Shown: positions 23,235-43,647 of the stretch, one piece after another
How the letters are laid out: every line of letters starts with the position of its first letter
How positions within the stretch are numbered: position 1 is the first letter of the stretch
Sequence record: MT446407.1
Direction: 5' to 3' (one strand)
Origin: Escherichia virus TH34
DNA: 64,000 nt
Made by a program: the position numbers and the translations under genes
The notes under the pieces: model-generated
The model's database searches: none
The model's input: only the letters and a program-made list of their open reading frames with translations
What the model was told of the DNA's origin: nothing

Positions 23235-25025
23235 ATGTCAAAGATCATTTTAGGGGATACAGGTTGTAAAGAATGTATCTCTCATGGTCGTGATAAGACC
23301 CACAATCACATGATTCTCTTCCGAAACGAAGAGTCCGGTGAAGAGTGGGGCAGTTGTAATCGTTGTGGTAGTTATGAAGTTTTCGAAAAGGGAACAACTC
23401 CTACACCGAATGAAAAGAAAGAACTATCCCCTGAAGAACTCCGAGAGATCTTAGACGATTGCTTAGAGCTGCCTCAGGGTGAGCTTACTCGTCGTTTGAT
23501 TCCTAAAGCTGTCTCTGAACGGTATGAATGCCGTATTGGTTTGAGTCAGACAGATGGGCAAACTCCTGATAGTTACTTCTTCCCTCGTGAACGTGATGGA
23601 AACATTGTTGGTTATGAAGTTAAGCTTCTAGACAGCAAGAAATTCTATTACATCGGCAGTGTTAAAGAAGCTGACCTATTCGGTATGGCTCAAGCACAAC
23701 GCGGGGACGTGTACAACAAGAAGCTCTTCATCTTTGAAGACCCACTCTCTTGTATGTCTGGCTTCCATGTGCTCACTGCGTTCACGAACGCTACAAACAT
23801 CAAACCTGCGTGTGTATCTCTACCGTTTGGTGCAGGTTCAATCTCTTCCGTTCTCTCACGTAACCGTGACTTCTTGAATGGTTTTGAGGAGATTGTGCTC
23901 TGCATGGACAATGATGATGCAGGTGAGATTGCATTAACTAAAGGTCGTGCATTATATCCCCATGTTAAATTTGCTCGTATTCCGAAAGGAACCTTCACTT
24001 ACAATGGTCAAGAGAAGGAAATCAAAGATGCAAATGACATGTTACTCGCTGGTCGAGGTCAAGAGCTATTCAACAATCTGAAATATTCAGCGAAGCGGGA
24101 ATCACCTGCTGGTGCTGTTACTGTCTTTGATTGTTTAGAAGACGCTCTGAAGAAAGCGGAATGGGGTATTCCTTATCCGTGGAAAACTCTGAATGAAATG
24201 ACCTTCGGCATTCGTTGGGGAGAGATGGTTGCAATCGGTGGTGGTGTTGGTTCAGGTAAAACCTTAATCGCACACGAACTGGTAGCATGGCTTTGCCTTG
24301 AGCATGGTTTTAATGGTGGTGGCTTCTTCTTGGAAGAGAAGGTAGGCATGTCTGTTAAAAACATTGCAGGTAAATCAGCATCTGTACCTTTCCACCGACC
24401 TGATGTTGAATATGAGGAATCTCAGCTACGTGACGAAGCACTCCGTTACGCTGACAAGTTCTTCTTGTATGACAACTTCGGACAGAATGAGTGGGATGAT
24501 ATTAAGCAGTGTATTCGCTTCTGGGTAGTTGAGAATCAGTGTAAGTTTATCATTCTTGATAACATCACTGCATTAGTTTCTCACCTAACTCCATCTGAGG
24601 TGAATACAGAAATCAGTAAGATTGCTTCAGAGCTTGCTGGTATGTGTAAGGAATTAGACTTCACTGCTTTTGTATTATCTCACTTGAATGCTCCGGCAGG
24701 TGGTGCTCCTCACGAAGAAGGTGGGCAGGTGAAAGAAGTTCAGTTCACTGGTTCACGTTCACTGATGCGTTGGTGTCAGTGCATCATCGGTTTTGAGCGA
24801 GATAAGCAAGCGGATGGGTTAGGCAAGAACTTGTCAATCATACGACTTCTCAAGGAGCGTAACTACGGTCAGACAGGTGTTTGCTACACCAAGTATATCA
24901 ATGAAACAGGTCGACTTGTAGAACGAGAAGATCACGAAGTTGATGAAGCTAATCCGTTTGTCTTGACCAATGGTGAGGATGCAGCTTCTCTGCTCACACA
25001 AGACGGGGAGGCACGACCTTGGTAA
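23235..25025 (+). CDS. primase-helicase (zinc-ribbon/primase N-terminus, DnaB-type helicase C-terminus)
   Basis: Strong RBS AAGGAGG; N-terminal CxxC..CxxC; Walker [10 protein letters not shown] and Walker B IILDNI. Confidence 0.7.
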
Positions 25026-25567
25026 AGAAAATATTCGCCTTCGATATCGAGGGTGATAATCTCTATGAGGGCATCCAAAATGTCTGGTGTATCTGGATAT
25101 TTGATGTTCTTACAGGTGAACGGTGGGGGTATCGCCCTCACCAAATTGAAGAAGCTCTTCACAAACTGAAGGAAGCTGATATAGTTGTAGGACACAACAT
25201 CATAGATTTTGACCTACCAGCTCTCTTTAAATTCTACTCTCATGTAATACCTTTCCACTTCAATGTCTTTGATACACTTTGCCTGAGTCGTTATCTCAAG
25301 CCTGACCGTATTGGAGATAATCCAGAATATCCCAAAGGCGACCCTAGACATGGCCCTCGTGGTCATGGCCTCAAGCAATGGGGCGAATTTCTGGGTGAAC
25401 TGAAGGGTGATTATGGTGAGCAGGAAGAAGCATGGGATGCATTCACTGAAGACATGTTCACATATTGTGAGCAAGACGTTAACTTAACAGTTAAGGTTTA
25501 CATGTGTCTTTGCCAAATGGCAGGATTTGATTATAAGAATCCCCCATCTCTCAACTGGAAAATGTAG
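25019..25567 (+). CDS. stand-alone DnaQ-like 3'-5' exonuclease (DEDDy)
   Basis: Exo I FDIEG, Exo [11 protein letters not shown], Exo III YCEQD; TTG start overlapping helicase stop, GGGGAGG 7 nt upstream. Confidence 0.55.
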
Positions 25568-25569
25568 AA

Positions 25570-27006
25570 ATGATTAAGATTCCATTGTCTGAATTAAACC
25601 TTCAAGAAGGAGAAGCCCTCAGTGTAGGGCTTGACCTGATTCGTAATTTGATCAGAGATAACGTAGTCCCTGATGGTATCTATCCTGTTATTGCGGGTGG
25701 TGCTATCCGTGATACGTTCTTCCAAAATCGAACTCCGAATGACGTTGATATCTTCCTAGTTCAAGGAGGATTTCGTTGGAACACTCGTCAGGAAAACAGC
25801 CCTGCTAACGTGGGTAATGCTGCACTGTTCCTTGACAACTTCTTGTCTTGGACAGAGAGTAAAGGGCTTCAAACTACATCTCGCCTAGTTCAGCCTGTTA
25901 GTGGGACAAATTACGCTGAAGCACTTTTCACTTTCCAAGAGATTTTGGAAGTGGAGATTGACGAAGTGAAGATTCAGATGATGATTAACCTCCCTCTGGA
26001 TATGGATACTCTGAGAGGTCGCTTCCCTATGATTTGTCAAGGGTTTATGACTCTCGATGATATGTATGTGTCGAACGAAGGTATGTTTGCAATGGCATAT
26101 ACTAATGATATCCCTGTGGTGACAAGTCGTGACATGAAGTATGTCCACAAAAAGTGGCCTGAAGCAACAGTTGCAGTTTACAGCAGTTCTACTGAGTATA
26201 TGCACCTTGCAATGGGAGCTTTTGGTGAACCAGAAGTTCATCTGATCAGTGATTTAGTTGGGCCTATGGCTGGTGTAAACTTGTATCAGAATCAACGTCG
26301 CCACTACACCTTGAAGATGATGGAAACTGTATTAAATATTCCTCAGGAAGCGGGTCGTAACTATCTGGATGAAGAGGTTAACCTACAGACAGATTGGTCT
26401 AGTGAATTAACCACTATTGGTGTTGAAGCAATTACGCAGCCTTGGACTCCGGGAACTGACAGACGTGACTCTTGGCAACAGACAAGATTCGCAGCACCTG
26501 CTACAGAGGCACCTCGTGATACTTTCACTGGTAGTTTTGGTAGTGCCCGTTCTTCTGGAATGGGTACTCGTACATGGCACGTCACTCATGATACAGGTGG
26601 AGTAACTGTTCGACCTGCTTCTTCTCCATCTATGGGTGATTTGCAGCGTTCCCGTCGTTCATGGGAAACAGTTAGCTCTGTTGTTCAGGGTCTACGTTCT
26701 AGTGATATAGAACGTGTAGAAGTTGGTGATTTGCCAACCCCTACAGAAGATCGGGTAGCAGCTATAGCGGCTCGTGAAGCTGCTCGTACTGGCTTTGCAT
26801 CTTTAGCTAACGACGCTCGACCTGTTGGTCGTCGTAATGGTCTGGCTCATTCTAACACTGCACTTGGTGCAGAACTCCGAGCAACAGCTCGTGAATTAGT
26901 TGGTGAACTTGATAGTAACTTAGCAGGTGTTACGCTGACTCGTGAAACAGCTCGTAACATGATTAACAATTTGACATCATCTGTACAAGGAAACAGAAAC
27001 TCATGA
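25570..27006 (+). CDS. CCA-adding-enzyme/poly(A)-polymerase-family nucleotidyltransferase with low-complexity C-terminal half
   Basis: VIAGGAIRD...NDVDIF matches the GGxVRD...DxD head-domain motif; C-terminal ~200 aa Ser/Thr/Arg/Gly-rich. Confidence 0.5.
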   Translation: MIKIPLSELNLQEGEALSVGLDLIRNLIRDNVVPDGIYPVIAGGAIRDTFFQNRTPNDVDIFLVQGGFRWNTRQENSPANVGNAALFLDNFLSWTESKGLQTTSRLVQPVSGTNYAEALFTFQEILEVEIDEVKIQMMINLPLDMDTLRGRFPMICQGFMTLDDMYVSNEGMFAMAYTNDIPVVTSRDMKYVHKKWPEATVAVYSSSTEYMHLAMGAFGEPEVHLISDLVGPMAGVNLYQNQRRHYTLKMMETVLNIPQEAGRNYLDEEVNLQTDWSSELTTIGVEAITQPWTPGTDRRDSWQQTRFAAPATEAPRDTFTGSFGSARSSGMGTRTWHVTHDTGGVTVRPASSPSMGDLQRSRRSWETVSSVVQGLRSSDIERVEVGDLPTPTEDRVAAIAAREAARTGFASLANDARPVGRRNGLAHSNTALGAELRATARELVGELDSNLAGVTLTRETARNMINNLTSSVQGNRNS

Positions 27007-27536
27007 GTCTTTTAGGTTCTCAAGAACTACACAACGTTATTGATAATGGCTTTTTAGATGCGGAGCATAAATATGTTAACGCTGCTAGCGTGGATATCCG
27101 TATTGGTGATACTATCCTTGTTGAAGAACAGGCTGACGGCATTGTTGACATTGATGCTAAAGAAAATCTCAAGTGGAAAGAAGTGAAAATCCCTGAAGAT
27201 GGTATTGTCATCACTCCGGGACAATTCTTCTTAGCTCACTCAATGGAAGAGTTTAACCTTCCAGATAACATCTCAAGTCTGTTTGTACTTCGCTCCTCAA
27301 TGGCTCGTTGTGGTTTGAACCACTTACATGCTGGTTGGGCTGATGCAGGGTTTAACAGCAGTAAGCTGACCTTTGAATTCCATAACGTTACCCACAACCA
27401 CAGCTTACGAGTTCGTGCTGGGATGCGTGTTGGTCAGATGGTTATGTTTGAACACTCTCACGCTGGTGATGATTCCTATGCAGTGAAGGGTCGTTACAAT
27501 GGCAGCAATGGGGTAGTTGCATCTAAAGGTGTATAA
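27003..27536 (+). CDS. dCTP deaminase / dUTPase-superfamily protein
   Basis: ASVDIRIGD and GWADAGF motifs typical of Dcd/Dut fold. Confidence 0.55.
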   Translation: MSLLGSQELHNVIDNGFLDAEHKYVNAASVDIRIGDTILVEEQADGIVDIDAKENLKWKEVKIPEDGIVITPGQFFLAHSMEEFNLPDNISSLFVLRSSMARCGLNHLHAGWADAGFNSSKLTFEFHNVTHNHSLRVRAGMRVGQMVMFEHSHAGDDSYAVKGRYNGSNGVVASKGV

Positions 27537-27541
27537 CCAAG

Positions 27542-27733
27542 ATGAAAGAAGAAAAAGCTACTTACTTAGCTATTGGTTTTGTAGTTGGGGCATTTGCTAT
27601 GGGAGTATTTATATCTAACGTTGGTCCAGATTCTAGCGTTAAGATTGAGACGAGAAGAGCCGCTTGTGAAATAAATCTCCCTCGTAATCAGGTCTGTGTA
27701 ATGCAGTTTGTCCCTAAATCGGTTGACAGATAA
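27542..27733 (+). CDS. small membrane-anchored protein (63 aa)
   Basis: N-terminal hydrophobic helix. Confidence 0.4.
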   Translation: MKEEKATYLAIGFVVGAFAMGVFISNVGPDSSVKIETRRAACEINLPRNQVCVMQFVPKSVDR

Positions 27734-27945
27734 TGGAGTTTGGAACAATGAAAAGACGTTGGGTAGTTCGTATTCACTGGAGCAGTGGTACAGAGTCAAT
27801 GGGTATTAGGAATACCCGTCAAGAAGCTCGCGCTCATAAGAAGTTCTTGTTAAGTTGTGAAAGCACAATTAATAAGATCACTATCCACAAAGCTCAAGAC
27901 TTTAAATCAGGTCGTTTCTATATCAGCGGAAAGGTACATTACTAA
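27733..27945 (+). CDS. small protein, TRQEAR paralog family (1 of 3)
   Basis: NTRQEARAHKK...KVHY; alternative ATG 27748. Confidence 0.45.
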   Translation: MEFGTMKRRWVVRIHWSSGTESMGIRNTRQEARAHKKFLLSCESTINKITIHKAQDFKSGRFYISGKVHY

Positions 27946-28160
27946 TGGATAAATTATGGGCAGTTCGTACTAAATGGGCTAACAAAGCTCTTGGTGGTGA
28001 TTGTATTCAATTATTCAACACAAGACAAGAGGCTCGTCTTGCTAAGAAAACTATAAAAGCTACAAAAGCTTTAGGAATCGCTGAAAAGGTGGAGATTCAT
28101 CGTTGGATTGAAAATATCCAGAACAGTGCTGGATTCATATCCAGCAAGGTTTATTACTAG
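27945..28160 (+). CDS. small protein, TRQEAR paralog family (2 of 3)
   Basis: NTRQEARLAKK...KVYY. Confidence 0.45.
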   Translation: MDKLWAVRTKWANKALGGDCIQLFNTRQEARLAKKTIKATKALGIAEKVEIHRWIENIQNSAGFISSKVYY

Positions 28161-28230
28161 TTGGTAGTAGATATGATAACTCTCAAATGTATATACAGTA
28201 TAAGAATATTGTATGAAACAGGAGAGAGTT

Positions 28231-28560
28231 ATGTTAGATTTGAGTAAAGTGGCCCCGCCATCTGAAGAGATTAGCAAAGCTAAAGTTATGCAGCAGTTCT
28301 ATCATCGTGATATGCTTGGTCGTTATATCAAGAATCGTGATGTTGTTGCATGGTCTATTGGAAATCAAGGTTATCTTCTCAAAGTGTTGCAAGTTACTGG
28401 CTCAACAGCCAAGCGAGTCAAAGTCTATGACCCTGAAATGGGGCGTTCTAAGTCTGTAGACCCACAGAATTGCATTGTTATTACCCAGCAGGTCATGGAC
28501 AACATTGCTCGTAACGTAGCCAATTCAACCAATTTAGAAGGAGAGACTCCTAATGCATAA
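28231..28560 (+). CDS. hypothetical protein (109 aa)
   Basis: ATG 28231 with AGGAGAG upstream; track start 28213 contains the RBS. Confidence 0.4.
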   Translation: MLDLSKVAPPSEEISKAKVMQQFYHRDMLGRYIKNRDVVAWSIGNQGYLLKVLQVTGSTAKRVKVYDPEMGRSKSVDPQNCIVITQQVMDNIARNVANSTNLEGETPNA

Positions 28561-29119
28561 TAATGTCTTCGACTTACCTGAACTAACACGAGTGGGTTCT
28601 AGTAACCCATTCTCTACAACTGACTCCTCTATCTCTCGTCTTGAGGGAATGAATAAACTGATCAGCGGTAACAGTCTAGAGCACATCCTATGCGGTGTGC
28701 AGGCTAACCTTGAGCTTCTACACATCAAAGCAAAGAATTACCACTGGAACGTCTCTGGAGCTGGTTTCCAAGGTGTTCATGGTATGTTCGATGAATTAGA
28801 AGACTATGCTCGTGAAACAGGAGACCGAGTAGCTGAGCGAATGCGTTATCACTGTATCAAAGTGGATGCAACAGCTAGTAGCTATCTTAGTTGTGCTTGG
28901 TTCAGAGAAGGTAGTGCTGATCTCGACATGGACGGTATGCTTTCCGACATGTGCATGACTCTGATGTGTATCATTGAAAAGATGGACGAGTTTGATTCAG
29001 ACTTGTGCACTTATCCAGTAGACCAGAGTATGCTTCAAGAAATTAATGAAGGTCTTGGCAAGTTCTGTTACTTCGTCAAGAGCAACATGTCCCACTCTAG
29101 TGGCGATGTGTCTTACTAA
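28553..29119 (+). CDS. Dps-like ferritin-fold protein
   Basis: HWNVSGAGFQGVH and DRVAERM fit both Dps signature patterns; RBS GAAGGAGAG. Confidence 0.55.
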   Translation: MHNNVFDLPELTRVGSSNPFSTTDSSISRLEGMNKLISGNSLEHILCGVQANLELLHIKAKNYHWNVSGAGFQGVHGMFDELEDYARETGDRVAERMRYHCIKVDATASSYLSCAWFREGSADLDMDGMLSDMCMTLMCIIEKMDEFDSDLCTYPVDQSMLQEINEGLGKFCYFVKSNMSHSSGDVSY

Positions 29120-29182
29120 TCAAACCTCCGCCCTGTCTCTTTGTTTAAGAGGTGGGGCGAACTTCTTTATAAGGATGTGAAT

Positions 29183-29362
29183 ATGTTTTCAGCAATCGTA
29201 TGGTCTGTGTGGGCAATTCTTGTTGGTGGTATTGTTTATCTGGCTCAAAAGCAAATGCTTAAAGAAAATCCAAATGATGCCAAACCTATTAAACATGGTA
29301 GCATTGCTCTGGTAGTTTTCTCTGTTGTTATTCCTTTCCTTCTCCACCTGTGGACTGCATAA
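29183..29362 (+). CDS. small membrane protein (59 aa)
   Basis: ATG 29183 with AAGGA upstream; two hydrophobic segments. Confidence 0.35.
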   Translation: MFSAIVWSVWAILVGGIVYLAQKQMLKENPNDAKPIKHGSIALVVFSVVIPFLLHLWTA

Positions 29363-29538
29363 TGAAATTAAACCTCCCTGAAGAATTACAAGCACATGCC
29401 ATTATCATTAGTGGCTGTGTGATGGGTCTTGGTCAGACAAAGAAGATTGCTCATGACTTAGCAAAAGGTCAGTATAAATCTTTTATTGTTGTTCCTGCTA
29501 CCCAGCGTCATATCAACCTGTTTATTAACAAGGAATAG
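29362..29538 (+). CDS. hypothetical protein (58 aa)
   Basis: TAATG overlap with upstream stop. Confidence 0.35.
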   Translation: MKLNLPEELQAHAIIISGCVMGLGQTKKIAHDLAKGQYKSFIVVPATQRHINLFINKE

Positions 29539-29539
29539 A

Positions 29540-29815
29540 ATGAGTAAAGTAATTAAGTTTTATAGTAATTCATGTGCTCCATGTGCAGCTATGGCTCCTG
29601 TGTTTAAGAAGGTTGTGGCTGACTACAGTGTAGAAGTTGAAGAAGTAAATATCTCTGAAGGTGATGGTCGAGAGCGAGCCATTGAATATGGTGTTCGCAG
29701 TATCCCAGCCTTTGTCGTCCCTGATAAGAATAGTGGCGCTCATTACAGCTTATCAGGTATTCAAACTGAATCTAATCTCCGTGCATTTTTAGACACGGCT
29801 CTGAAAGGTGTTTAA
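29540..29815 (+). CDS. thioredoxin/glutaredoxin-like protein
   Basis: ATG 29540 with AAGGA upstream; FYSNSCAPC active-site-like CxxC. Confidence 0.5.
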   Translation: MSKVIKFYSNSCAPCAAMAPVFKKVVADYSVEVEEVNISEGDGRERAIEYGVRSIPAFVVPDKNSGAHYSLSGIQTESNLRAFLDTALKGV

Positions 29816-29816
29816 T

Positions 29817-30032
29817 ATGGAAAAGAAACCTTGGACTACTTTTTGGGTAGTTAAGTGGTTTAATTTTGATAGCACAATCCCTAGCTTCTCCTCATACACA
29901 ACACGGAGAGAGGCTCGCCGCTTTAAGCGAGCTTTAAAAATTGCTAACACTGGCGCTTCTAAGATTACAATTCAGAAAGGGATTGAAACAGAAAGTGGAA
30001 GCAACATGATTTATAAAAAGATTCATTATTAA
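29817..30032 (+). CDS. small protein, TRQEAR paralog family (3 of 3)
   Basis: TTRREARRFKR...KIHY; ATG 29817 with AAAGGTG upstream. Confidence 0.45.
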   Translation: MEKKPWTTFWVVKWFNFDSTIPSFSSYTTRREARRFKRALKIANTGASKITIQKGIETESGSNMIYKKIHY

Positions 30033-30039
30033 GGAAGTG

Positions 30040-30510
30040 ATGTTATACGGTAATTTGGAATACAACCCTGAAACTGGAGACTTCTTTAGGAATAGCAAAA
30101 AGCTAGGAGGAAAGAGGAGCAAGTATGCAACCCTTCGGTTTCAAGGTAAAGTAAGAAAAGCACATGTGGTTGCTTGGTTTATTTATTATGGGGAGTGGCC
30201 TACTTCTCAAATAGACCATGAAGATGGTAATAAGAGGAACAACTCAATCTCTAATCTTCGATTAGTAGACACCTCTACTAACTGTCACAATCAGTTTGGT
30301 GCAAGATCTTCAAACATACAATCAGGTTTTCAAGGGGTTAAAGTTGTTAAGTACAAATCAGGCACTATTCGATATAGAGCAGTTATTTGTATTAATGGCA
30401 AAGATATACACCTAGGGATGTATGGAACTCCTGAAGAAGCACATCAAGTCTATATAGAACGGAAAAAGGAACTTTTACGTGAACGAACAACTAACAGCAA
30501 CATTGATTGA
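30040..30510 (+). CDS. HNH homing endonuclease
   Basis: HEDGNKRNNSISNLRL HNH motif; ATG 30040 with AAGGAAG upstream. Confidence 0.55.
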   Translation: MLYGNLEYNPETGDFFRNSKKLGGKRSKYATLRFQGKVRKAHVVAWFIYYGEWPTSQIDHEDGNKRNNSISNLRLVDTSTNCHNQFGARSSNIQSGFQGVKVVKYKSGTIRYRAVICINGKDIHLGMYGTPEEAHQVYIERKKELLRERTTNSNID

Positions 30511-31129
30511 ACATATGGGAAGCGATAAATCCGTTGTGAATGCGGCAAGGGTTTCTTTTGGTGTTGTACGAGAAGGTGATTTAAATGAACGTGATGAAAG
30601 ACTCATTAAATTCTTGGCAAGGGAAAAACACTGTACACCATTTCGTCATCCAACAATTAGCTTCCGATGCAAAGCGCCAATCGCAATTGCACGACAACTT
30701 GGAAAACATCAAGTGGGGTTCTCGTGGAACGAAATGTCCCGGCGGTATAAAGATGGAGCAGTTGAACTCTTCATCCCTAAAGAGATTTTTGAAAGACCTT
30801 CGGACCTCCATGCAGGTGCAGGGAATCTCCTCACCACAGGAGCACAAAACTCTGCACTAGTTCTGATTAACCGAGCATATGAAACAGCTCTTGAGTCGTA
30901 CGATGAATTGATTAAGTTCATTGCTCCAGAACAAGCTCGATTCGTATTACCTCAGGGTATGATCACTGAGTGGGTATGGACTGGTTCTCTATATGGTTGG
31001 TCAGAGTTGTGTCGTCAGCGACTGTCAGACCATGCTCAGTATGAGGTGCGTTTGTTCGCATCAACAATTGATGAAGAGCTTCGTAAAATATATCCAATCT
31101 CTTGGGATGCATTACGTGAAGCCCACTAA
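30479..31129 (+). CDS. thyX: flavin-dependent thymidylate synthase ThyX-like (variant signature)
   Basis: HCTPFRHPTISF...ARQLGKHQVGFSWNEMSRRY aligns to the ThyX core, but RHR reads KHQ; start GTG 30479 or ATG 30515. Confidence 0.55.
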   Translation: MNEQLTATLIEHMGSDKSVVNAARVSFGVVREGDLNERDERLIKFLAREKHCTPFRHPTISFRCKAPIAIARQLGKHQVGFSWNEMSRRYKDGAVELFIPKEIFERPSDLHAGAGNLLTTGAQNSALVLINRAYETALESYDELIKFIAPEQARFVLPQGMITEWVWTGSLYGWSELCRQRLSDHAQYEVRLFASTIDEELRKIYPISWDALREAH

Positions 31130-31301
31130 AGTATGTAGCTTCTGTCGAAAGCAGAAGCTTCTTATCAATTTCAAACTGAACGAGGAAACAGGTTTGGGTC
31201 ATGCTTTTTGTCATGATTGCAGGCACTACCTCGAACAGAAGCAATACATAAACTGGTTGCATTACTACAACCCTAACATCTATAAGCACAAGGTTATCTA
31301 A
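31107..31301 (+). CDS. small Cys-rich protein (start uncertain)
   Basis: CSFC...CHDC pairs; overlaps ThyX 3' end; ATG 31107 or GTG 31116. Confidence 0.3.
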   Translation: MHYVKPTKVCSFCRKQKLLINFKLNEETGLGHAFCHDCRHYLEQKQYINWLHYYNPNIYKHKVI

Positions 31302-31781
31302 ATGAAAGCTATTTTTGAAGGAAGGGAGTATGATGTTCCTGATTGGGTTAAATACATAGCCCGTGACTATGATAATCTGGTTTGGGCATATGGAGACGTA
31401 AGACCTGTGTTTAATGAAAACACTGGTAGTTGGTCTAACATGTCAAAATTACCAGGATTTATTCGGGCACTTGGCTCTTCTAGTCGTCCTGTAGGTTTCG
31501 CTGCTGACTCACTTGTTGAGGTTGGTGTTGAAAAGGAAATAGACAAGCCAGAAACAATTTGGGTTCTATCTTCAAGCACCCCAATTAAAGGAAGTCGTGG
31601 GATTTCCTTCTATGTTGAGCCTGTCGCTTACTTCAAAAACAAGCCGACCATTAATGCTCTGATGTTAAAGAACATTCCTTATTCACAAGTTGCTACTTTG
31701 TTAGATAACGGAACAGTGCTTGTTGAGAATAATGGGACAAATCAAATCTTTTATGATTTAGAAGAAAGGGTTTTAGAATGA
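31302..31781 (+). CDS. hypothetical protein (159 aa)
   Basis: TAAATG-coupled ORF. Confidence 0.5.
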   Translation: MKAIFEGREYDVPDWVKYIARDYDNLVWAYGDVRPVFNENTGSWSNMSKLPGFIRALGSSSRPVGFAADSLVEVGVEKEIDKPETIWVLSSSTPIKGSRGISFYVEPVAYFKNKPTINALMLKNIPYSQVATLLDNGTVLVENNGTNQIFYDLEERVLE

Positions 31782-31990
31782 AAGGTTTAGTGTTAGGAAA
31801 ACACCGTTTTACTTTCCGCATCTCCGACAGGAACCCATACCCTACCAAGATTGAACCTTACGAGATCATCTCTGAAGTGTTTATCTGGCCTTGGCAGAGT
31901 ATCTATGATGTTGCTCTTAAGTCCAAGAAGAAGCTGATACCTGTTGGTATTTGGGCTGATGTTGATTTAGTTAAAATCGAAAAGGTTTAA
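31778..31990 (+). CDS. hypothetical protein (70 aa)
   Basis: ATGA-coupled ORF. Confidence 0.45.
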   Translation: MKGLVLGKHRFTFRISDRNPYPTKIEPYEIISEVFIWPWQSIYDVALKSKKKLIPVGIWADVDLVKIEKV

Positions 31991-31991
31991 A

Positions 31992-32222
31992 ATGAAAGTT
32001 TGGATATTGACACGAGAGATTAACCAGTATGACCAAGATGGTGCATATTTTGAAGCAGTCTTTCTGAATAAACCAACAGCTGAGCAATTAGCAGAAGCTG
32101 GTGTATCTTCCTATTGTATTGACTATACGTTAAAACAAACCCACTCTGATGGCTCTTGTGGTGGTCGGTCTGAACACATGGAAGATGAATGGTGGCTTTT
32201 AGAAGAGATTGAGGTTAAATAA
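31992..32222 (+). CDS. hypothetical protein (76 aa)
   Basis: ATG 31992 with AAAGG upstream. Confidence 0.45.
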   Translation: MKVWILTREINQYDQDGAYFEAVFLNKPTAEQLAEAGVSSYCIDYTLKQTHSDGSCGGRSEHMEDEWWLLEEIEVK

Positions 32223-32543
32223 ATGATCAACGATAATACATTTAGGACTGGTAACGGAAACGAGATTAGTCCTGCTGAAGTGATTAAACGACACAGAACG
32301 CAGATGCTTATCCATTCCTATTTGTATTATTGGTTGGATGACCCAATCTGGTCTGATGACAAATGGCAACAAGTGGCTGATGACTTAACCACTTTACAAG
32401 AGATGTATCCTGAGCCTATTGAATTCTTTGATTCAGAGTTCAATGGATGGAATGGCTCTACTGGTATGCACCTCCCTCATGACGAGCGTATAGCTTGTAT
32501 GGCTACCGAAGTATATCGTTTACATAAGGACAAATCTATCTGA
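32223..32543 (+). CDS. hypothetical protein resembling NAD-dependent DNA ligase domain Ia (tentative)
   Basis: HSYLYYWLDDPIWSDDKWQQVADDLTTLQEMYPEP resembles the LigA N-terminal Y.YY..D.P..D..YD.L...L...YPE pattern. Confidence 0.3.
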   Translation: MINDNTFRTGNGNEISPAEVIKRHRTQMLIHSYLYYWLDDPIWSDDKWQQVADDLTTLQEMYPEPIEFFDSEFNGWNGSTGMHLPHDERIACMATEVYRLHKDKSI

Positions 32544-32725
32544 AATGTTTTAAATGTGAATCCACACTTCTCCATCTGGACTCGAAAGTAATACGAGAGC
32601 TTGCTAAAGGCTCTCCGACGAAAGGGAAGAATAAGAAATTTGTCGAAGTTAAGGTTACAGGTACTCATTGTTCAGAGTGTAAATCCTGTAGCTACACGTA
32701 TGAAGAACTTGGAGGTAGAAAATGA
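32540..32725 (+). CDS. zinc-ribbon-like ORF without canonical start (possible CUG start or pseudogene)
   Basis: 65-codon frame open from 32528 with KCFKC...HCSECKSC and no in-frame ATG/GTG/TTG; CTG 32540 overlaps upstream TGA, AAGGA 9 nt upstream. Confidence 0.2.
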   Translation: MKCFKCESTLLHLDSKVIRELAKGSPTKGKNKKFVEVKVTGTHCSECKSCSYTYEELGGRK

Positions 32726-33459
32726 ATCGCAGAGAAACTCGTAGAGAAGCACGGAAAGCAGCTCGTCGTGGTGAACAGGTGACTAATAAAGGTAAACGTG
32801 AGTATCAAGAAGTTGTTCTCGCTAAGCCTGTAGTTCCTCAGAATCAGTTTCAATCTGAACTGCTCAATGCTATCAAGACTAAACAAGTAGTCTTTACGGA
32901 TGCTCCTGCTGGATGTGGTAAGACTTATGTTATCACAACAACTGTTATTGATGCTCTGAAAAGTGGGAAGATTCAAAAGATCATCCTAAGCCGTCCTGCT
33001 GTTGGTATGGGTAATTCACTTGGGTTACTTCCCGGTGGGTTGCGTGAGAAGTTCGAACCATACCTGATGCCAATCGTTGATGTTATCACTCAGCGTTACG
33101 GTAAAGGCTTCTACGAGTGTCAAATTGGTAATGGTAACATTGAGTTCGTACCTCTGGAATACCTCCGTGGTCGTTCATTCAATGACGCTATTGTGATTGT
33201 TGATGAGTTCCAGAACACTACTCCTGATGAAGCATATTCAATCATGACCCGTCTTGGTGAAACCTCTCAGATGTTCTGTATGGGTGATACTAACCAGCAT
33301 GACATGCGTGGTGAGAGTGGTTTGGAATGGGCTACTGACTTCATTGATCGTCATGACTTATTTGAGTTTGCTGCTTTGGTTGACGGTGAGTCAGATGATA
33401 TTGTTCGTTCAGGTTTCTGTAAAGCTATTGTTAAAGCAATGGAATCTGAAAAATCCTAA
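32722..33459 (+). CDS. phoH: PhoH-like P-loop ATPase
   Basis: Walker A APAGCGKTYV and PhoH-like context; RBS GGAGG. Confidence 0.6.
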   Translation: MNRRETRREARKAARRGEQVTNKGKREYQEVVLAKPVVPQNQFQSELLNAIKTKQVVFTDAPAGCGKTYVITTTVIDALKSGKIQKIILSRPAVGMGNSLGLLPGGLREKFEPYLMPIVDVITQRYGKGFYECQIGNGNIEFVPLEYLRGRSFNDAIVIVDEFQNTTPDEAYSIMTRLGETSQMFCMGDTNQHDMRGESGLEWATDFIDRHDLFEFAALVDGESDDIVRSGFCKAIVKAMESEKS

Positions 33460-33462
33460 ACA

Positions 33463-33474
33463 TAATGTATACTC
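33463..33474 (+). promoter_or_regulatory. TAATGTATA element (candidate phage-specific promoter)
   Basis: Exact TAATGTATA 29 nt upstream of ATG 33504; same core as 39779-39790 and minus-strand 49307-49318. Confidence 0.3.
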
Positions 33475-33503
33475 CTTAGTGTACACTGATATATTAAGGA
33501 GTT

Positions 33504-33827
33504 ATGATGACTGATAAGGCAAAACGTGATTATGCACAAGAAAGACGTACCGCAATCAAACGTGGGGAGACAGGTGTTGGTAGCAAGAGCGGAGATGCTC
33601 AGCGCCACCGTGCACGTCGCATCGTTGAAAAGCGCGATGGAAAAGCTGCTGTCCGAGGTAAAGATGTTGGACATAAACGATCAATCAAGTCGGGAGGTTC
33701 TAATGCGTCAAGTAACTTACGTGTTGAATCAGTCTCTGGAAATCGCTCGAACGGCGGCAAAAGTGGAGATCGTGCTGGAAAATCAGCAGGAGGAGTCAAA
33801 TCGAGAAAAGGCGCTCTAAGTCAATGA
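33504..33827 (+). CDS. hypothetical basic Gly/Ser/Arg-rich protein (107 aa)
   Basis: ATG 33504 with AAGGAG upstream; stop ATGA-coupled to next gene. Confidence 0.45.
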   Translation: MMTDKAKRDYAQERRTAIKRGETGVGSKSGDAQRHRARRIVEKRDGKAAVRGKDVGHKRSIKSGGSNASSNLRVESVSGNRSNGGKSGDRAGKSAGGVKSRKGALSQ

Positions 33828-34318
33828 TTCCGATTTCCGACTACTTGTCATACGACCTGGATACTGTTTTATTGATTTTTACCGAATCTAGCTCTAAAGG
33901 TAAGAAATGGAATAAATCACATCCGGGAAAAGTGGCAGGGGCTGTTGATGAAAAAGGGTATATCAGAGTTTACTTTGAAGAGAGGAGATGGAAAGCTCAC
34001 AGACTTATAGCTTCTGTGCTCATACCTAACCCTGAAAATAAACCACAAATTAACCACATCAATGGTAACAAAAGTGATAATAGGTTAGAGAACCTAGAGT
34101 GGGTCACTGGTCATGAAAATATGCAACATGCTTTTTCAACAGGTCTTAATGTTGGTAAAGAGAGGGATGCTAATGGAATGACTAAAATCAACACATTGGA
34201 TGTGGAGAAGATCAAGAGTTTATATGTTAAAGGCTCTACCACTCATGGAACAAGAGCACTAGGTAAGATGTTTGGCGTAAGTCACACAGCTATCCGACAT
34301 GCTTTAAGCTCAAGTTAA
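33824..34318 (+). CDS. HNH homing endonuclease
   Basis: HINGNKSDNRLENLEWVT HNH motif. Confidence 0.55.
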   Translation: MIPISDYLSYDLDTVLLIFTESSSKGKKWNKSHPGKVAGAVDEKGYIRVYFEERRWKAHRLIASVLIPNPENKPQINHINGNKSDNRLENLEWVTGHENMQHAFSTGLNVGKERDANGMTKINTLDVEKIKSLYVKGSTTHGTRALGKMFGVSHTAIRHALSSS

Positions 34319-34323
34319 TATAA

Positions 34324-34354
34324 GGCTACCCATTTCGGGTGGCCTTTTCTTTTA
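34324..34354 (+). terminator. rho-independent terminator
   Basis: Stem GGCTACCC / GGGTGGCC then TTTTCTTTT. Confidence 0.5.
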
Positions 34355-34374
34355 TATAATCTAAGGTAATAAAT

Positions 34375-34626
34375 ATGTCTAAAGTAACTTATATCACTGT
34401 AACTGATTTCTTTCCTTTTCTGGATGTAACTGAAAGCTACACCTTCCCCGTGAGCAATGTTACAAGCTCTGTTGAGATGATTCAATTTAACCCAACAACA
34501 GCTCGTACTAACGTGGCTCTTCGTGGTCCTGATGGCAAGTTCATCTCCTTCCGCGATAAGGCTGTTCCTAAGCGTATTGCTAAGTCTATTGAAAATCTGA
34601 AACCTTTCCCTAACTTTGGTGCATAA
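34375..34626 (+). CDS. small protein, tandem paralog A (TARTNV...NLKPFP)
   Basis: Shares TARTNVxxRGxDGKFxSxRD...NLKPFP with next ORF. Confidence 0.5.
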   Translation: MSKVTYITVTDFFPFLDVTESYTFPVSNVTSSVEMIQFNPTTARTNVALRGPDGKFISFRDKAVPKRIAKSIENLKPFPNFGA

Positions 34627-34627
34627 T

Positions 34628-34885
34628 ATGAAGATTAGCTTAATCCAAATTCGTGATCATCTCTTTAACGGTGACGCTCAGACTCATGATTACAAGGTTA
34701 ATCAAGGACAACACCCTACCAATCATCTTATTGGAGGGATTTCTCTATTACCTAATAAAACAGCACGGACGAATGTAATGATTCGTGGTAAGGATGGTAA
34801 ATTCCTTTCTTATCGTGATCTTGAAATCTGTGCTGATGTTCGTACAGCTATGAACAATCTGAAACCTTTCCCGACAGTGGAGTAA
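34628..34885 (+). CDS. small protein, tandem paralog B (TARTNV...NLKPFP)
   Basis: ATG 34628 follows upstream TAA. Confidence 0.5.
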   Translation: MKISLIQIRDHLFNGDAQTHDYKVNQGQHPTNHLIGGISLLPNKTARTNVMIRGKDGKFLSYRDLEICADVRTAMNNLKPFPTVE

Positions 34886-34888
34886 GTT

Positions 34889-35242
34889 ATGCCAGTACCT
34901 CAACGCCTAGAACGTCACTGCGTTCTCAAATGGGACAATATTCATGACAACCTCTCCATTCAAGAGTTTCGTCAGTTTATTGAATTAACAGCGAAGATTA
35001 ACCGAAACCAACCAGCTCGAAACTTTGTAGTGGTTAGTGATAAGTATCCTGAGTTGTATGAGCAGGTGTGGGGTATGAAACTTGCACAGGTTCAGAGAAA
35101 CAGCAATGAACGAAGAGAAACTCGTAGACAGCGAGCAGAAGATATTCCAGCAGTCTTTTATGTGGATGAATTAACGGAATCCTATGAACAGTTAGATATT
35201 GTCGAGGATAACCAAGCGTTCACTGATTTAATATACCAATAA
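34889..35242 (+). CDS. hypothetical protein (117 aa)
   Basis: ATG 34889 with GGAG upstream. Confidence 0.5.
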   Translation: MPVPQRLERHCVLKWDNIHDNLSIQEFRQFIELTAKINRNQPARNFVVVSDKYPELYEQVWGMKLAQVQRNSNERRETRRQRAEDIPAVFYVDELTESYEQLDIVEDNQAFTDLIYQ

Positions 35243-35258
35243 TTATAAGGAGTGGGTG

Positions 35259-37103
35259 ATGGATAACCCTGATAAGTTACCTTTCATAACGGAGATGACA
35301 GTCGCTGATATAATCTCAAAGCAGGCGAAGCATGGCGTCAACTTCCACAGAAGAAACGCTCGGTGGTTTGTTCACCTTCTCAAAGAGATTATTGTCAATA
35401 TTGATAAAGAACTGATTCCTCTCCTCCCCAAAATGCGGGTGGATGGTTCAACTTATTCGAAACCTTTTAAGAAGTCAGGTTCTTTACAGAAGTGGCCTCA
35501 GCTCTATTGTGACAGAGTTGGTCTTAAAAGGGAAGATATCGGTGGGGCGTTTACTTGCGTTGAGTATGTAGACTTCGACCCATCGAAAGATGCACGTATC
35601 AAAGAAGCCTTGATGGACGAAGGCTTTATTCCTCCAGAGTGGAACACATCCAAGAAACCTTGGAATACTTACGAAATCCGTAAAGCGATGAAGAAGTATG
35701 GCACATATGCTGCTTGGTATTCTGCTTGGATGCGGGGAAACGCTAAAGAAAAACAGACAGCTGAGATGATTGACGCTGACATTCGTCGGTTCTTGGATAA
35801 ACACTTCCGTTATCACACTGTCAATTACATGAAAGCGTACGTTAGTGGTTTAGGCTTGAATCCGAACAGGAAGAAGCCTGTAACCTTTGATGAAATTAAG
35901 AAAGCTTTAGCCATGTCAAACAAGTGGCCTACAGCTCCTACAAACCTCGAGGAGACGCTTGAAGAAGGTCTTGGGGGTGAGCTAGGGGGTGTGGGAGGTT
36001 TGCTTAAGAGACGTGTTGTAGCGGCTCACAGGCTTGGCTTGATTAATGGTCTTATAGACAAGGAACGAGAAGATGGTAAGTTGTCCGCCGAAGCTAATAG
36101 CTGCGCTACTCCGACATTTCGTTTTAAACACCGTATTGTTGTTAATATTCCTTCTCGCGGTTTGTTTGGTCACGAGTGCCGCAGTCTATTTCAGTCTGAC
36201 TGTACCTCAAGTGATAGTAATCACAATCCTATCATCATTACCAACCATATCCCTGATGGGTGTTACGTACGAAAAGGTACAAACACTATCTACGAAGTGG
36301 GAAAACCGGGCAAGAAAGACAAACCGATAGGTGCTCTGAAATATTACATACCTTCTGGTCATGAAGTATTTCTTGGTTATGATGGTTCAGGGTTAGAACT
36401 GCGTATGCTGGCTCACTACCTTATTAAAGAGTGTCGTGAGATGTTGGCAGAGGCAGAACAAGAGAATAACCCAGCTAAGAAACGAGAAGCTGAACGCGGT
36501 TTAGCATCTGCCGTATTGTACAGAGATATTCTCTTACAGGGTGATATTCACTCCCATAACCAGAAACTTGCTGGCTTGCCTACCCGTGATAATGCTAAGA
36601 CGTTTATCTACGCATTCAACTACGGAGCTGGTGATGCTAAGCTAGGTAGTATTGTTGGTGGTGGGGCTGATGAAGGTTCTATAATGAGAGCTAGATTCTT
36701 AGCAGAGAACCCTTGTATTGCAATCCTTATTGAACGTATGACAGAGAAAGCACAAAGTGGATACATCTACGGTGTTGACGGTCGTCGTATTACAATGAGA
36801 CGTGACGGTACAGGAAAGGTCATGACACACAAAGCCTTAAATACGCTCTTACAGAGCGCTGGGGCGATTGTTATGAAGTATGCAATGCTATTCCTCAATA
36901 AATGGATTGAGCGTGATGGTGTTCGTTGTGCGAAGGTTATCGACATGCATGATGAAGGTCAGTTCACTGTACATCGTGATGATGTTAACAAACTTCGCAC
37001 TCTCACTGAGGAATGTGTTCGTAAAGCGGGTGAATACCTCAAGATGGAATGCCCTCTTGCATCAGATTGTAAGATTGGACTGAATTGGCAGCATACGCAC
37101 TAA
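35259..37103 (+). CDS. family-A DNA polymerase, polymerase domain
   Basis: Motif A YDGSGLELRMLAHY, motif B RDNAKTFIYAFNYGAG, motif C MHDEGQF; ATG 35259 with AAGGAG upstream. Confidence 0.7.
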   Translation: MDNPDKLPFITEMTVADIISKQAKHGVNFHRRNARWFVHLLKEIIVNIDKELIPLLPKMRVDGSTYSKPFKKSGSLQKWPQLYCDRVGLKREDIGGAFTCVEYVDFDPSKDARIKEALMDEGFIPPEWNTSKKPWNTYEIRKAMKKYGTYAAWYSAWMRGNAKEKQTAEMIDADIRRFLDKHFRYHTVNYMKAYVSGLGLNPNRKKPVTFDEIKKALAMSNKWPTAPTNLEETLEEGLGGELGGVGGLLKRRVVAAHRLGLINGLIDKEREDGKLSAEANSCATPTFRFKHRIVVNIPSRGLFGHECRSLFQSDCTSSDSNHNPIIITNHIPDGCYVRKGTNTIYEVGKPGKKDKPIGALKYYIPSGHEVFLGYDGSGLELRMLAHYLIKECREMLAEAEQENNPAKKREAERGLASAVLYRDILLQGDIHSHNQKLAGLPTRDNAKTFIYAFNYGAGDAKLGSIVGGGADEGSIMRARFLAENPCIAILIERMTEKAQSGYIYGVDGRRITMRRDGTGKVMTHKALNTLLQSAGAIVMKYAMLFLNKWIERDGVRCAKVIDMHDEGQFTVHRDDVNKLRTLTEECVRKAGEYLKMECPLASDCKIGLNWQHTH

Positions 37104-37111
37104 TTGAAAAT

Positions 37112-37139
37112 GAACTAGTCTTATTGATTAGTTCTTTTT
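37112..37139 (+). terminator. rho-independent terminator
   Basis: Stem GAACTA / TAGTTC then T5. Confidence 0.5.
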
Positions 37140-37153
37140 AAGGAGACAAGGAA

Positions 37154-37288
37154 GTGGAAGAAGTAAAAAGTTCTGAATGGTGCTTGAAGCAACAAAAGCT
37201 CGCACAGGATGAAGGTCGTTTTGAAGACGCTAAAGCTTATGGTGAATTATTTCAAACATGGGTAGAACGAGAGGAGAAAGCTAAATGA
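37154..37288 (+). CDS. hypothetical small protein (44 aa)
   Basis: GTG 37154 with AAGGAG upstream; below track cut-off. Confidence 0.3.
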   Translation: MEEVKSSEWCLKQQKLAQDEGRFEDAKAYGELFQTWVEREEKAK

Positions 37289-42035: not shown

Positions 42036-42631
42036 TGAGTAAACCATTAGTAGTAATTCTGAATGGACCACCGGGTTGTGGTAAAGATACAATCGCTAAT
42101 GCTTGGTTAGAGAAGACCGTCGGTAACACTGAGTTTAGGCCGCATGTAAAGGCTTTTAAGGAGCCTATGTATCGAGTGGCTGCTGCTGCATTAGGACTTC
42201 CTCTTTATGAGTTCATGGAGCTATACAACGATCGTGAGTGGAAAGAATATAGCCGTCCTGAATGGGGCGGTAAGACAGTTCGAGATTTAATGATTGCGAC
42301 TAGTGAGAACTACCTGAAACCAATGTTTGGTGACACCTGCATGGGTAAGCTTGCTGTTAGCAGTATTCAACAACGCATCCCAACACAGAATGATGTTATT
42401 GTATTCTCTGATGGTGGATTTAAAGCAGAAGTTGAAGAACTGGAAAAACATTTCCATGTTCGAGTAATTCAGATTCATCGTGATGGCTGTACTTTTGAAG
42501 GAGACTCTCGTTCCTATATTGAAGGCGCGAACCTTTCAACCTACCTTCTCTTTAATGATTGTTCTATAGAAGAGGCGGTGGAGTATTTAGAATACAGTAT
42601 TGCACAGACACGGAGAGATCTCTATGCCTGA
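42035..42631 (+). CDS. P-loop nucleotide/nucleoside kinase (dNMP-kinase-like)
   Basis: Walker A ILNGPPGCGKDT near N-terminus. Confidence 0.45.
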   Translation: MSKPLVVILNGPPGCGKDTIANAWLEKTVGNTEFRPHVKAFKEPMYRVAAAALGLPLYEFMELYNDREWKEYSRPEWGGKTVRDLMIATSENYLKPMFGDTCMGKLAVSSIQQRIPTQNDVIVFSDGGFKAEVEELEKHFHVRVIQIHRDGCTFEGDSRSYIEGANLSTYLLFNDCSIEEAVEYLEYSIAQTRRDLYA

Positions 42632-43445
42632 TGTAATCTATCCTGAAGTAGCAATTGTGGATGCAGATGTTCTTAGGTATGAAGTTGGTGCTCTTACACA
42701 AGAGCATCCTTTCCTAGACACAGGTCGTGTTCCAGTTGATTATGGATTCTTGATTGAACGTCTCCAACATAAGATTGATGTAATCATCTCAAGAACTGGT
42801 TGTGAAAGAACAATCTTTTATTTCAGCGAAGGTGGTAACTTCCGCTTCGATGTTGCCAAGCAGCAAGGTTATAAAGCTAACCGACCTCCGGGAGAAAGGC
42901 CACATCACTGGCAGAACGTTAGTGATTATATCAAAGAACATTACCAGTATGTTGAAGTGTTTGGCAGAGAAGCAGATGATGCACTCGCTGAACGACAGCG
43001 TATAGAAAAGAACACAATCATCTGTACTCGTGATAAGGATTTGTTAATCACTCCCGGATGGCATTACCGCTGGGCTTGCGGTGAACGACAGAAAGAAGTA
43101 CCCCCTCATTACGTATCAGAGGAAGTAGCATGGCAGAACTTCTTCTATCAGATGTTGATTGGAGACAGTACAGATAACATCCCCGGATGTGGTGAGAAAG
43201 TTGAAATGATGTGGGGCGGTAACTTAGTTATGCGTCGTAAGGGTATTGGTAGCAAAGCTGCTATCAAACTTATTGAGAAGGTATTCGATAAGTGGACTCT
43301 TTATCATATTATACGAATGGAATACTATAAGAGGTTCGAGGAAGAAGCAGAAGCTAAGATGTTAGAAAATGCTCGATTGCTCTTCGTTGGACAAGCTGAA
43401 GGCGACCTCTTTGATTGGTCGTGGTTAGATAAATCTTGGGAATAA
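42624..43445 (+). CDS. FEN-type 5'-3' exonuclease / flap endonuclease
   Basis: EADDALA, RDKDLL and GDSTDNIPG motifs typical of T5 D15/T4 RNase H/Pol I 5' nuclease; ATG 42624 with GGAGAG upstream. Confidence 0.55.
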   Translation: MPDVIYPEVAIVDADVLRYEVGALTQEHPFLDTGRVPVDYGFLIERLQHKIDVIISRTGCERTIFYFSEGGNFRFDVAKQQGYKANRPPGERPHHWQNVSDYIKEHYQYVEVFGREADDALAERQRIEKNTIICTRDKDLLITPGWHYRWACGERQKEVPPHYVSEEVAWQNFFYQMLIGDSTDNIPGCGEKVEMMWGGNLVMRRKGIGSKAAIKLIEKVFDKWTLYHIIRMEYYKRFEEEAEAKMLENARLLFVGQAEGDLFDWSWLDKSWE

Positions 43446-43455
43446 GGATATTATA

Positions 43456-43647
43456 ATGGGTAAATTTGACTATCGTTCGTATGATGAAAATTCCTCTAAT
43501 CGTGAGTCTCGTAAAGACCAGAAGATTAAACACCAAGCATTTGATCGTCGTACAGGACGTATCCCTCGTGCTGAAAAAGAATCACATCGTATTAACAAAC
43601 GTATTTGGGAAGATGCTGACATGGATGTAGGTTATGGAGAAAGCTGA
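43456..43647 (+). CDS. small basic protein (63 aa)
   Basis: Arg/Lys-rich. Confidence 0.4.
   Translation: MGKFDYRSYDENSSNRESRKDQKIKHQAFDRRTGRIPRAEKESHRINKRIWEDADMDVGYGES

Follow-up and report, generated by a model that had tools for sequence, protein, structure and literature searches.

In phiEco32-like, Grimontviridae and LUZ24-like phages, as well as in some cyanophages, the T7-type DNA polymerase is known to be divided between two genes. Here, we examine this arrangement in Escherichia virus TH34 (sequence record MT446407.1), over a stretch of 64,000 nucleotides (nt), called the window below and meaning the whole stretch at its full length. In it, a stand-alone proofreading exonuclease gene sits at the end of a primase-helicase gene, and the gene for the polymerase domain lies 9.7 kilobases (kb) downstream. 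Among the closest described systems, S-SBP1-like cyanophages carry a T7-cluster family A polymerase that is likewise split at the exonuclease/polymerase boundary. Specifically, the 2023 reclassification of family A polymerases, in which T7-like enzymes make up cluster 5, dismissed a frameshift for S-SBP1 and presented an AlphaFold complex of the two products that superposes on the unsplit polymerase (PMC10201439, Czernecki et al. 2023). The split is reported for the LUZ24 group and for phiEco32 in PMC3517423, and Kuravirus-like phages have been described with it as well. In genomes of the LUZ24 type, the two genes go by the names DNA polymerase part I and part II (PMC3890496), and in the phiEco32-like group the separation of exonuclease and polymerase is described as common to all members (PMC9965538). 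The record of phage Paul carries a note citing the Swiss-Prot entry for the "3-5 exonuclease gp74" of phiEco32, and the split is also embodied in PHROG families (403 and 38876, both "DNA polymerase exonuclease subunit").

The 14.3 kb around the split genes of the window are 95.8% identical to Escherichia phage StefiGeyer_Bas88 (Bas88) and 94% identical to phage ECBP2, and the region matches 98 phage records, nearly all of them from Escherichia or Shigella. By sequence similarity, the window is assigned to a Gordonclarkvirinae phage, that is, a phiEco32-like podophage of the C3 morphotype. In the ECBP2 and Bas88 records, the counterpart of 25019-25567 bears the name "DNA polymerase exonuclease subunit"; as in the window, it shares 7 nt with the "DNA primase/helicase" gene, and a separate "DNA polymerase" gene follows about 9.5 kb downstream of it. 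The arrangement is real, conserved, already annotated and published, and ordinary for the phiEco32-like group.

An earlier note, made from the letters of the window and their open reading frames (ORFs), had described a family A polymerase broken into these two genes and had offered two ways in which the parts could work: proofreading in trans, or an exonuclease riding on the helicase by means of frameshifting. The present analysis upholds the split and points, through collinearity with T7 gp5, to a separate subunit; the frameshift fusion fares badly on several counts set out below. All features described lie on the plus strand.

A stand-alone exonuclease gene

The gene at 25019-25567 encodes a predicted stand-alone DEDDy 3'-5' proofreading exonuclease subunit of 182 amino acids (aa), which starts at a TTG codon and corresponds to T7 gp5 residues 1 to about 200. 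The earlier note had placed here an ORF of this length with three DEDDy motifs, beginning at TTG 25019 and overlapping the helicase stop codon, and every one of these elements is found at those positions. A search of 5.8 billion proteins returned 34 homologues with identities down to 38%. All are stand-alone proteins of 163-195 aa, bar one fragment of 105 aa, and a C-terminal tail, GFDxxNPP, is conserved among them. Exo I (D9-I-E11) aligns with D5/E7 of T7 gp5. Exo II (H59-N60-IID-F64-D65) aligns with H59-N60...Y64-D65 of the T7 protein, and its H59, N60 and D65 are invariant. Exo III (Y149-CEQ-D153) aligns with T7 Y170/D174. The five catalytic residues, D9, E11, D65, Y149 and D153, are each invariant in the 34 homologues.

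Profile and structure comparisons identify the same domain. The protein matches Pfam PF01612 (DNA_pol_A_exo1) with an E value of 2e-6 (28.1 bits against a cut-off of 23.6), PHROG 38876 with E 7e-66 and PHROG 403 with E 9e-39; among sequences of solved structures it matches T7 gp5 with E 2e-9. Its AlphaFold model (predicted local distance difference test score, pLDDT, 93.2; predicted template modeling score, pTM, 0.89) has an RNase H-like fold that matches the polymerase editing domain, and the top 27 PDB matches of the model are all T7 gp5 (best E 8e-11; template modeling score, TM, 0.75). These motif, profile and structure matches are far beyond chance. The ratio of nonsynonymous to synonymous substitution rates (dN/dS) is 0.03 against ECBP2 and 0.06 against Bas88, similar to the ratios of the polymerase and helicase genes. 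Judged by its conservation, the exonuclease is a real, functional gene under strong purifying selection.

A polymerase gene without an editing domain

The second gene (35259-37103) encodes a T7-like family A DNA polymerase of 614 aa, comprising thumb, palm and fingers and corresponding to T7 gp5 residues from about 200 to 704, but without an exonuclease domain. A Shine-Dalgarno sequence, AAGGAG, read at 35247-35252, stands 6 nt before its ATG at 35259. This ATG, which is also the start used in Bas88, is the preferred start; GTG 35256 is less likely. The earlier note had assigned polymerase motifs A, B and C to this gene, and alignment with T7 gp5 bears this out: motif A (D375...E380), motif B (R443/K447/Y451/G456) and motif C (H564-D565-E566) all align with the T7 protein and are invariant in 59 homologues, and the C-terminal H614 aligns with T7 H704. 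Comparison with sequences of solved structures gives T7 gp5 at E 1.4e-33 and Klenow at E 5e-10. The AlphaFold model (pLDDT 90.7) has T7 gp5 as its best Foldseek match in the PDB (E 2e-26).

An intact exonuclease domain within this gene would have spoken against a split, and Pfam, alignment and model agree that there is none. PF00476 (DNA_pol_A) is the only Pfam match; PF01612 gives no match in the polymerase, and the model, which starts with long thumb helices, has no DnaQ-like sheet, so that a same-chain editing domain is absent. We also considered whether an exonuclease domain might be hidden in the roughly 100 residues by which the polymerase exceeds the corresponding part of gp5. This was ruled out, as the extra residues carry no DEDD motifs, Pfam match or DnaQ-like sheet. 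They are spread over three insertions, each of about 25-60 aa, that lie around motif A and where thumb and palm connect, and no single piece is large enough for a domain. All homologues that cover about 100% of the query (36-95% identity) are polymerase-only proteins of 490-618 aa. Relatives that are unsplit, with PF01612 and PF00476 together, are met only further away, sharing about 40% identity across about 60% of the polymerase query.

The polymerase gene of the window is uninterrupted. Among metagenomic homologues, polymerase pieces some 450 aa long are frequent. In ECBP2, an insert of 607 nt with an HNH gene lies just before the codons for motif C H-D-E (13757-14363 of the ECBP2 locus, L001; window point 36950/36951), and in Aeromonas phage BUCT695 (22097-22871 of locus L004) the polymerase is in two pieces with an endonuclease gene between them. 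Downstream, the window lacks a 103-aa hypothetical gene that Bas88 and ECBP2 have after the polymerase (37104-37284, compared with 13853-14199 of locus L002); there, 37104-37284 holds only non-coding sequence and a terminator-like hairpin (37112-37134).

Two parts collinear with T7 gp5

When the exonuclease and the polymerase are joined end to end, the alignment with T7 gp5 is collinear over its full 704 residues. The earlier note had suggested drawing the domain boundaries from such an alignment; it places the break near residue 200, in the interdomain segment. Against PHROG 17, a profile of full-length polymerases, the exonuclease takes up positions 670-826 and the polymerase positions 837-1233, so that the two abut. 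The GFDxxNPP tail of the exonuclease and the conserved N-terminus of the polymerase (W..PF..E..VA.IIS.QAKHGV.F) together match the T7 interdomain segment.

The order helicase, exonuclease, several genes and polymerase-only gene, all on the same strand, was found in five other sources. The interval between the two parts is 6.2 kb in BUCT695 and 4.5 kb in Proteus phage 3H10_20 (both Grimontviridae), 1.9 kb in a LUZ24-like Pseudomonas phage, and 1.7 and 3.2 kb in two metagenomic contigs. Genes upstream of the helicase are often shared too, namely those for an amidoligase, a glutamine amidotransferase, an ATP-grasp protein and a gamma-glutamyl cyclotransferase. A polymerase-only gene accompanies the stand-alone exonuclease in every genome found to carry the latter. 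In Citrobacter phage CVT22 (Zobellviridae), the upstream genes are similar, and an unsplit 635-aa polymerase lies downstream of the helicase. As far as these genome comparisons reach, the split is old and widespread over several phage lineages. Because the order recurs and CVT22 is unsplit, the simplest history is that a gp5-like gene downstream of the helicase underwent fission long ago. Such an ancestral gene, lying just downstream of the primase-helicase gene, would have been split at the exonuclease/polymerase domain boundary; the exonuclease part would have stayed at the 3' end of the helicase gene, and the polymerase part would have come to lie 9.7 kb away as nucleotide-metabolism genes and mobile HNH genes accumulated between the two.

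A probable two-subunit polymerase

The reading we favor, to which we give a probability of about 0.8, is that of a two-subunit T7-type replicative polymerase, in which a separately translated exonuclease re-associates non-covalently with the polymerase. The exonuclease would be made as a 182-aa (21-kDa) protein of its own, from the TTG with its strong Shine-Dalgarno sequence, and the polymerase, a 69-kDa protein, would be translated on its own, from a strong ribosome-binding site that belongs to its gene. Because the polymerase gene lacks an exonuclease domain, proofreading must come from a separate polypeptide. Re-association of the two into a gp5-like enzyme that takes its proofreading from a separate subunit is most likely, because the break falls at a domain boundary, both new termini are conserved, and the predicted S-SBP1 complex fits the unsplit polymerase. 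Proteomics of the related phage SU10 detected the polymerase at 69.1 kDa, the size of a polymerase-only protein (PMC4281155).

Several points weigh against a two-subunit enzyme. The AlphaFold models are of the exonuclease and the polymerase singly. The 34 proteins detected in SU10 include neither the exonuclease nor the helicase (PMC4281155). The literature searched holds no report of binding between exonuclease and polymerase or of proofreading by the 182-aa protein; it likewise holds no biochemical study of the split enzyme, of its fidelity relative to single-chain gp5 or of the purpose of the early and middle timing. That timing is itself a difficulty. By homology with SU10 and phiEco32 (PMC4281155), the exonuclease belongs to the early block of genes and the polymerase to the middle block, and terminator-like hairpins stand between the two genes (29129-29159 and 34322-34346). 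Because of these different blocks and the hairpins, synthesis of the two proteins may not be simultaneous.

The same division between early and middle blocks, along with the position of the exonuclease gene, which adjoins the helicase gene and not the polymerase gene in each lineage examined, could also mean that the 182-aa protein is an autonomous nuclease with a different job. It might serve in an early, helicase-linked role, in the processing of 3' ends during recombination or in the breakdown of host DNA, and the polymerase would then work without an attached editor. We regard this as improbable. The protein corresponds exactly to the editing domain of gp5 and ends at the domain boundary; its conserved tail and the polymerase N-terminus match the T7 interdomain segment between them; and its gene is always accompanied by a polymerase-only gene in the genomes found. 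The adjacency to the helicase is more simply explained by the ancestral order of helicase and then polymerase, as in CVT22.

The two-subunit polymerase may share further contacts with the T7 enzyme. The tail of T7 gp4 docks gp5. In the window, the C-terminus of the helicase, encoded at 24920-25022, is acidic and its last residue is Trp (...TQDGEARPW; the T7 gp4 tail is ...SNDTDF), and this tail, together with the thioredoxin that the phage encodes, resembles the thioredoxin and gp4-tail contacts of T7 gp5. Region 63-134 of the polymerase aligns weakly with the end of the T7 thioredoxin-binding loop. Phage-encoded thioredoxin has been proposed as a processivity factor (PMC7881722).

The main value of the finding is correct annotation. 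The window adds no new fact on proofreading in trans; the split enzyme could be a natural model for trans-proofreading in family A polymerases.

The helicase-exonuclease junction

The gene upstream of the exonuclease (23235-25025) encodes a T7 gp4-like primase-helicase of 596 aa (PHROG 239, E 7e-174; Pfam DnaB_C and Toprim_2). In the helicase frame, the junction reads ...GAC GGG GAG GCA CGA CCT TGG TAA. The exonuclease TTG occupies 25019-25021 and the helicase stop codon TAA occupies 25023-25025, giving an overlap of 7 nt. A Shine-Dalgarno-like GGGGAGG lies inside the helicase coding sequence at 25005-25011, with a 7-nt spacer to the exonuclease start, exactly where the earlier note had put it, and reading the junction confirms the claim that the exonuclease frame is -1 relative to the helicase. 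This frame is closed upstream by an in-frame TGA at 24974. TTG 25019 is the only usable exonuclease start, because no other ATG, GTG or TTG stands between that TGA and Exo I.

Start codons were compared with those of eleven other Gordonclarkvirinae genomes, namely ECBP2, Bas88 and nine more. In all of them, the base matching 25019 is the third base of a helicase Pro codon (CCN TGG TAA), and it is T, A or G, yielding TTG, ATG or GTG as the exonuclease start; it is C in none. A Shine-Dalgarno-like element is kept 7 nt before the start throughout, despite sequence change: Kuravirus relatives have ATGGAG at the equivalent spacing, with CAGATGGAG in place of the G-run of the window. Taken as a comparison of aligned sequences, this pattern is the signature of an initiation codon rather than of a shift site. 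Outside the subfamily, the junction varies. The two genes overlap by 1 nt in BUCT695, by 17 nt in the LUZ24-like phage and by 26 nt in one metagenomic contig (L010), the last two in the +1 frame; they are separated by 9 nt in 3H10_20, in relative frame 0, and by 8 nt in another contig (L011). The more distant relatives with such gaps (8 or 9 nt) have their own Shine-Dalgarno sequence before the exonuclease, which in 3H10_20 is AAGGAG.

Translation of the exonuclease is probably coupled to termination on the helicase gene, a proposal made because of the 7-nt overlap of start and stop. The RNA of the junction may have a part in this. The fold of the segment 25012-25110 (-32 kcal/mol) is more stable than those of shuffled controls (z = -4.0). 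In a common structure for ten relatives, 96% of cells are paired, against 30-54% in slid controls, and three pairs are changed on both sides, but the consensus is weak, at only -7.7 kcal/mol, and the alignment behind this comparison is also the one that yielded the structure. In the outer helix, the start/stop overlap, including the start codon, is paired to a segment about 45 nt downstream. If real, this RNA would fit a coupling in which the start is unmasked by the ribosome that terminates on the helicase gene. The evidence for a conserved structure is suggestive but weak; as the start codon forms part of it, the structure fits translational coupling at least as well as the stimulation of a frameshift.

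Coupling of this kind also admits the idea that the exonuclease partners functionally with the helicase as well as with the polymerase, being made early and in step with it through coupling gated by the RNA stem that masks the start. This would explain why the exonuclease has been kept at the helicase stop codon in each lineage examined as the polymerase drifted 2-10 kb away into a later class. We consider this reading improbable.

The earlier note's other proposal was a programmed -1 frameshift near the end of the helicase gene, which would produce a primase-helicase-exonuclease fusion and place proofreading on the helicase. Three observations made it worth considering: the exonuclease frame is -1 relative to the helicase and open for 14 codons before the TTG, the RNA just downstream (25012-25110) is unusually stable, and the phage group does use slippery-site frameshifting elsewhere, in the capsid gp9+10 fusion (PMC4281155). 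The frame itself is uninformative, because start/stop overlaps of 1, 4 or 7 nt always produce -1. Within 24977-25025, the sole zone (49 nt) in which a shift could take place, there is no X XXY YYZ heptamer in the helicase frame. The G-run is not conserved, the Kuravirus relatives having CAGATGGAG instead, and in all Gordonclarkvirinae compared position 25019 begins a start codon with a Shine-Dalgarno sequence 7 nt before it. Across lineages, the exonuclease lies in frame -1, 0 or +1 relative to the helicase, with junctions that extend from 26 nt of overlap to gaps of 9 nt; in BUCT695 and 3H10_20 the exonuclease frame is open for only 3 codons before its start. Nor do homologues include a fusion. 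All of the close ones (34/34) are at most 195 aa long. In a profile search, 1.84 billion cluster representatives yielded 4,663 matches, and among the best 150, which were examined, the exonuclease is N-terminal in every case, with 45 of stand-alone size, 79 of the size of exonuclease plus polymerase and 0 behind a helicase. SU10 proteomics gives no hint of a fusion either (PMC4281155). We consider the frameshift very improbable.

Least credible of all is that the halves come together again as a single gp5-like chain, through a split intein, trans-splicing or an intron. This might be imagined from the HNH-containing inserts that further interrupt the polymerase genes of ECBP2 and BUCT695, the intron reported in the LUZ24 polymerase gene (PMC3517423) and the term "exons" used for LUZ24-type parts (PMC3890496). 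But the joined sequence fits T7 gp5 without surplus residues at the break, so that intein halves (about 100 aa plus about 35 aa) would have no space. The parts are separated by at least nine same-strand genes that are translated independently and by terminator-like hairpins, either part starts from a Shine-Dalgarno sequence and a start codon of its own, and the SU10 polymerase is 69.1 kDa, not about 90 kDa (PMC4281155).

Genes between and beyond the two halves

The earlier note had put about 10 kb of nucleotide-metabolism genes and two HNH endonuclease genes between the exonuclease and the polymerase. The interval, 25570-35242, measures 9.7 kb, and Pfam and PHROG matches give it that gene content, together with small ORFs. 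In order, it holds genes for a nucleotidyltransferase (25570-27006), dCTP deaminase (27003-27536), a Dps-like protein (28553-29119), thioredoxin (29540-29815), an HNH_3 endonuclease (HNH-1, 30037-30510), ThyX (30479-31129), an Nlig-Ia ligase-like protein of 106 aa (32223-32543; Pfam Nlig-Ia, E 8e-34), PhoH (32722-33459) and a second HNH_3 endonuclease (HNH-2, 33824-34318). The 106-aa ORF, annotated as "DNA ligase" in relatives, consists of nothing but the N-terminal Ia domain of an NAD-dependent DNA ligase, and so cannot be a complete ligase.

Bas88 lacks HNH-1 (30038-30479), and neither Bas88 nor ECBP2 has HNH-2 (about 33825-34300). Because these two are patchy among relatives, the HNH genes behave as mobile free-standing homing endonuclease genes, and because their presence differs between the window, Bas88 and ECBP2, the gap between exonuclease and polymerase is still changing. 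The window has three HNH_3 genes in all (30037-30510, 33824-34318 and 43634-44086), two of which also have an AP2-like domain. The terminator-like hairpin at 34322-34346, a strong one, comes directly after HNH-2.

A pattern match at 28185-28195 (10/11 bases) fits tAATGTATAtA, the middle-promoter motif of the phiEco32/SU10 phage sigma factor; both this motif and the temporal gene classes of phiEco32 and SU10 are taken from PMC4281155. The site may mark the boundary between early and middle genes, between the exonuclease and the polymerase. Matches to the phage-sigma motif in the window are overall not above chance, and the boundary therefore rests on homology with SU10 and phiEco32. A scan of the window for sigma-70 promoters gave fewer matches than shuffled sequence.

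Beyond the polymerase, the gene at 42600-43445 encodes a FEN-like 5'-3' exonuclease, recognised by weak matches to Pfam 5_3_exonuc_N and 5_3_exonuc, below the gathering score. A separate 5'-3' exonuclease agrees with gp27 of phage YF01 (PMC9965538). As the FEN-like gene is separate too, all three activities of a Pol I-type enzyme are on separate genes in this phage.

Comparison with known systems

The nearest counterparts are the phiEco32-like phages (phiEco32, with its gp74 3'-5' exonuclease, SU10, ECBP2, YF01 and Bas86-92). They have the same genes in the same order, the 7-nt overlap and a polymerase-only gene about 10 kb downstream, and they differ at the strain level only. Specifically, their exonuclease starts with ATG or GTG, whereas that of the window starts with TTG; the window has two extra HNH genes in the interval; and the polymerase gene of ECBP2 is interrupted, whereas that of the window is not. 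LUZ24-like Pseudomonas phages (Bruynoghevirus) also place the exonuclease directly after the primase-helicase, with a polymerase-only gene downstream on the same strand and shared upstream genes. There, however, the interval is about 1.9 kb and the overlap 17 nt in the +1 frame, and the proteins are about 33% (exonuclease) and about 40% (polymerase) identical to those of the window. In the S-SBP1-like cyanophages, by contrast, the two genes are adjacent and overlapping and arose from a recent 1-nt deletion; here, they are 9.7 kb apart, and the split is shared by several lineages.

A functional analogy, and only that, is offered by the E. coli Pol III core, in which the DEDD exonuclease epsilon (DnaQ) is a separate subunit of the replicative polymerase alpha. 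Pol III differs in that alpha is a family C polymerase and epsilon is tethered to its PHP domain by a C-terminal peptide, an arrangement that did not come from the fission of a single-chain enzyme. Kinship lies with T7. Its gp5 is collinear with the two products over 704 residues, has the same catalytic residues and C-terminal His and is the best structural match for both halves, and its gp4, like the helicase of the window, has an acidic tail ending in an aromatic residue (Phe in T7, Trp here). T7 gp5 differs in being a single polypeptide, whereas the polymerase of the window has additional insertions on either side of motif A and in the thumb/palm connection, and, compared with T7, the phage of the window encodes its own thioredoxin.

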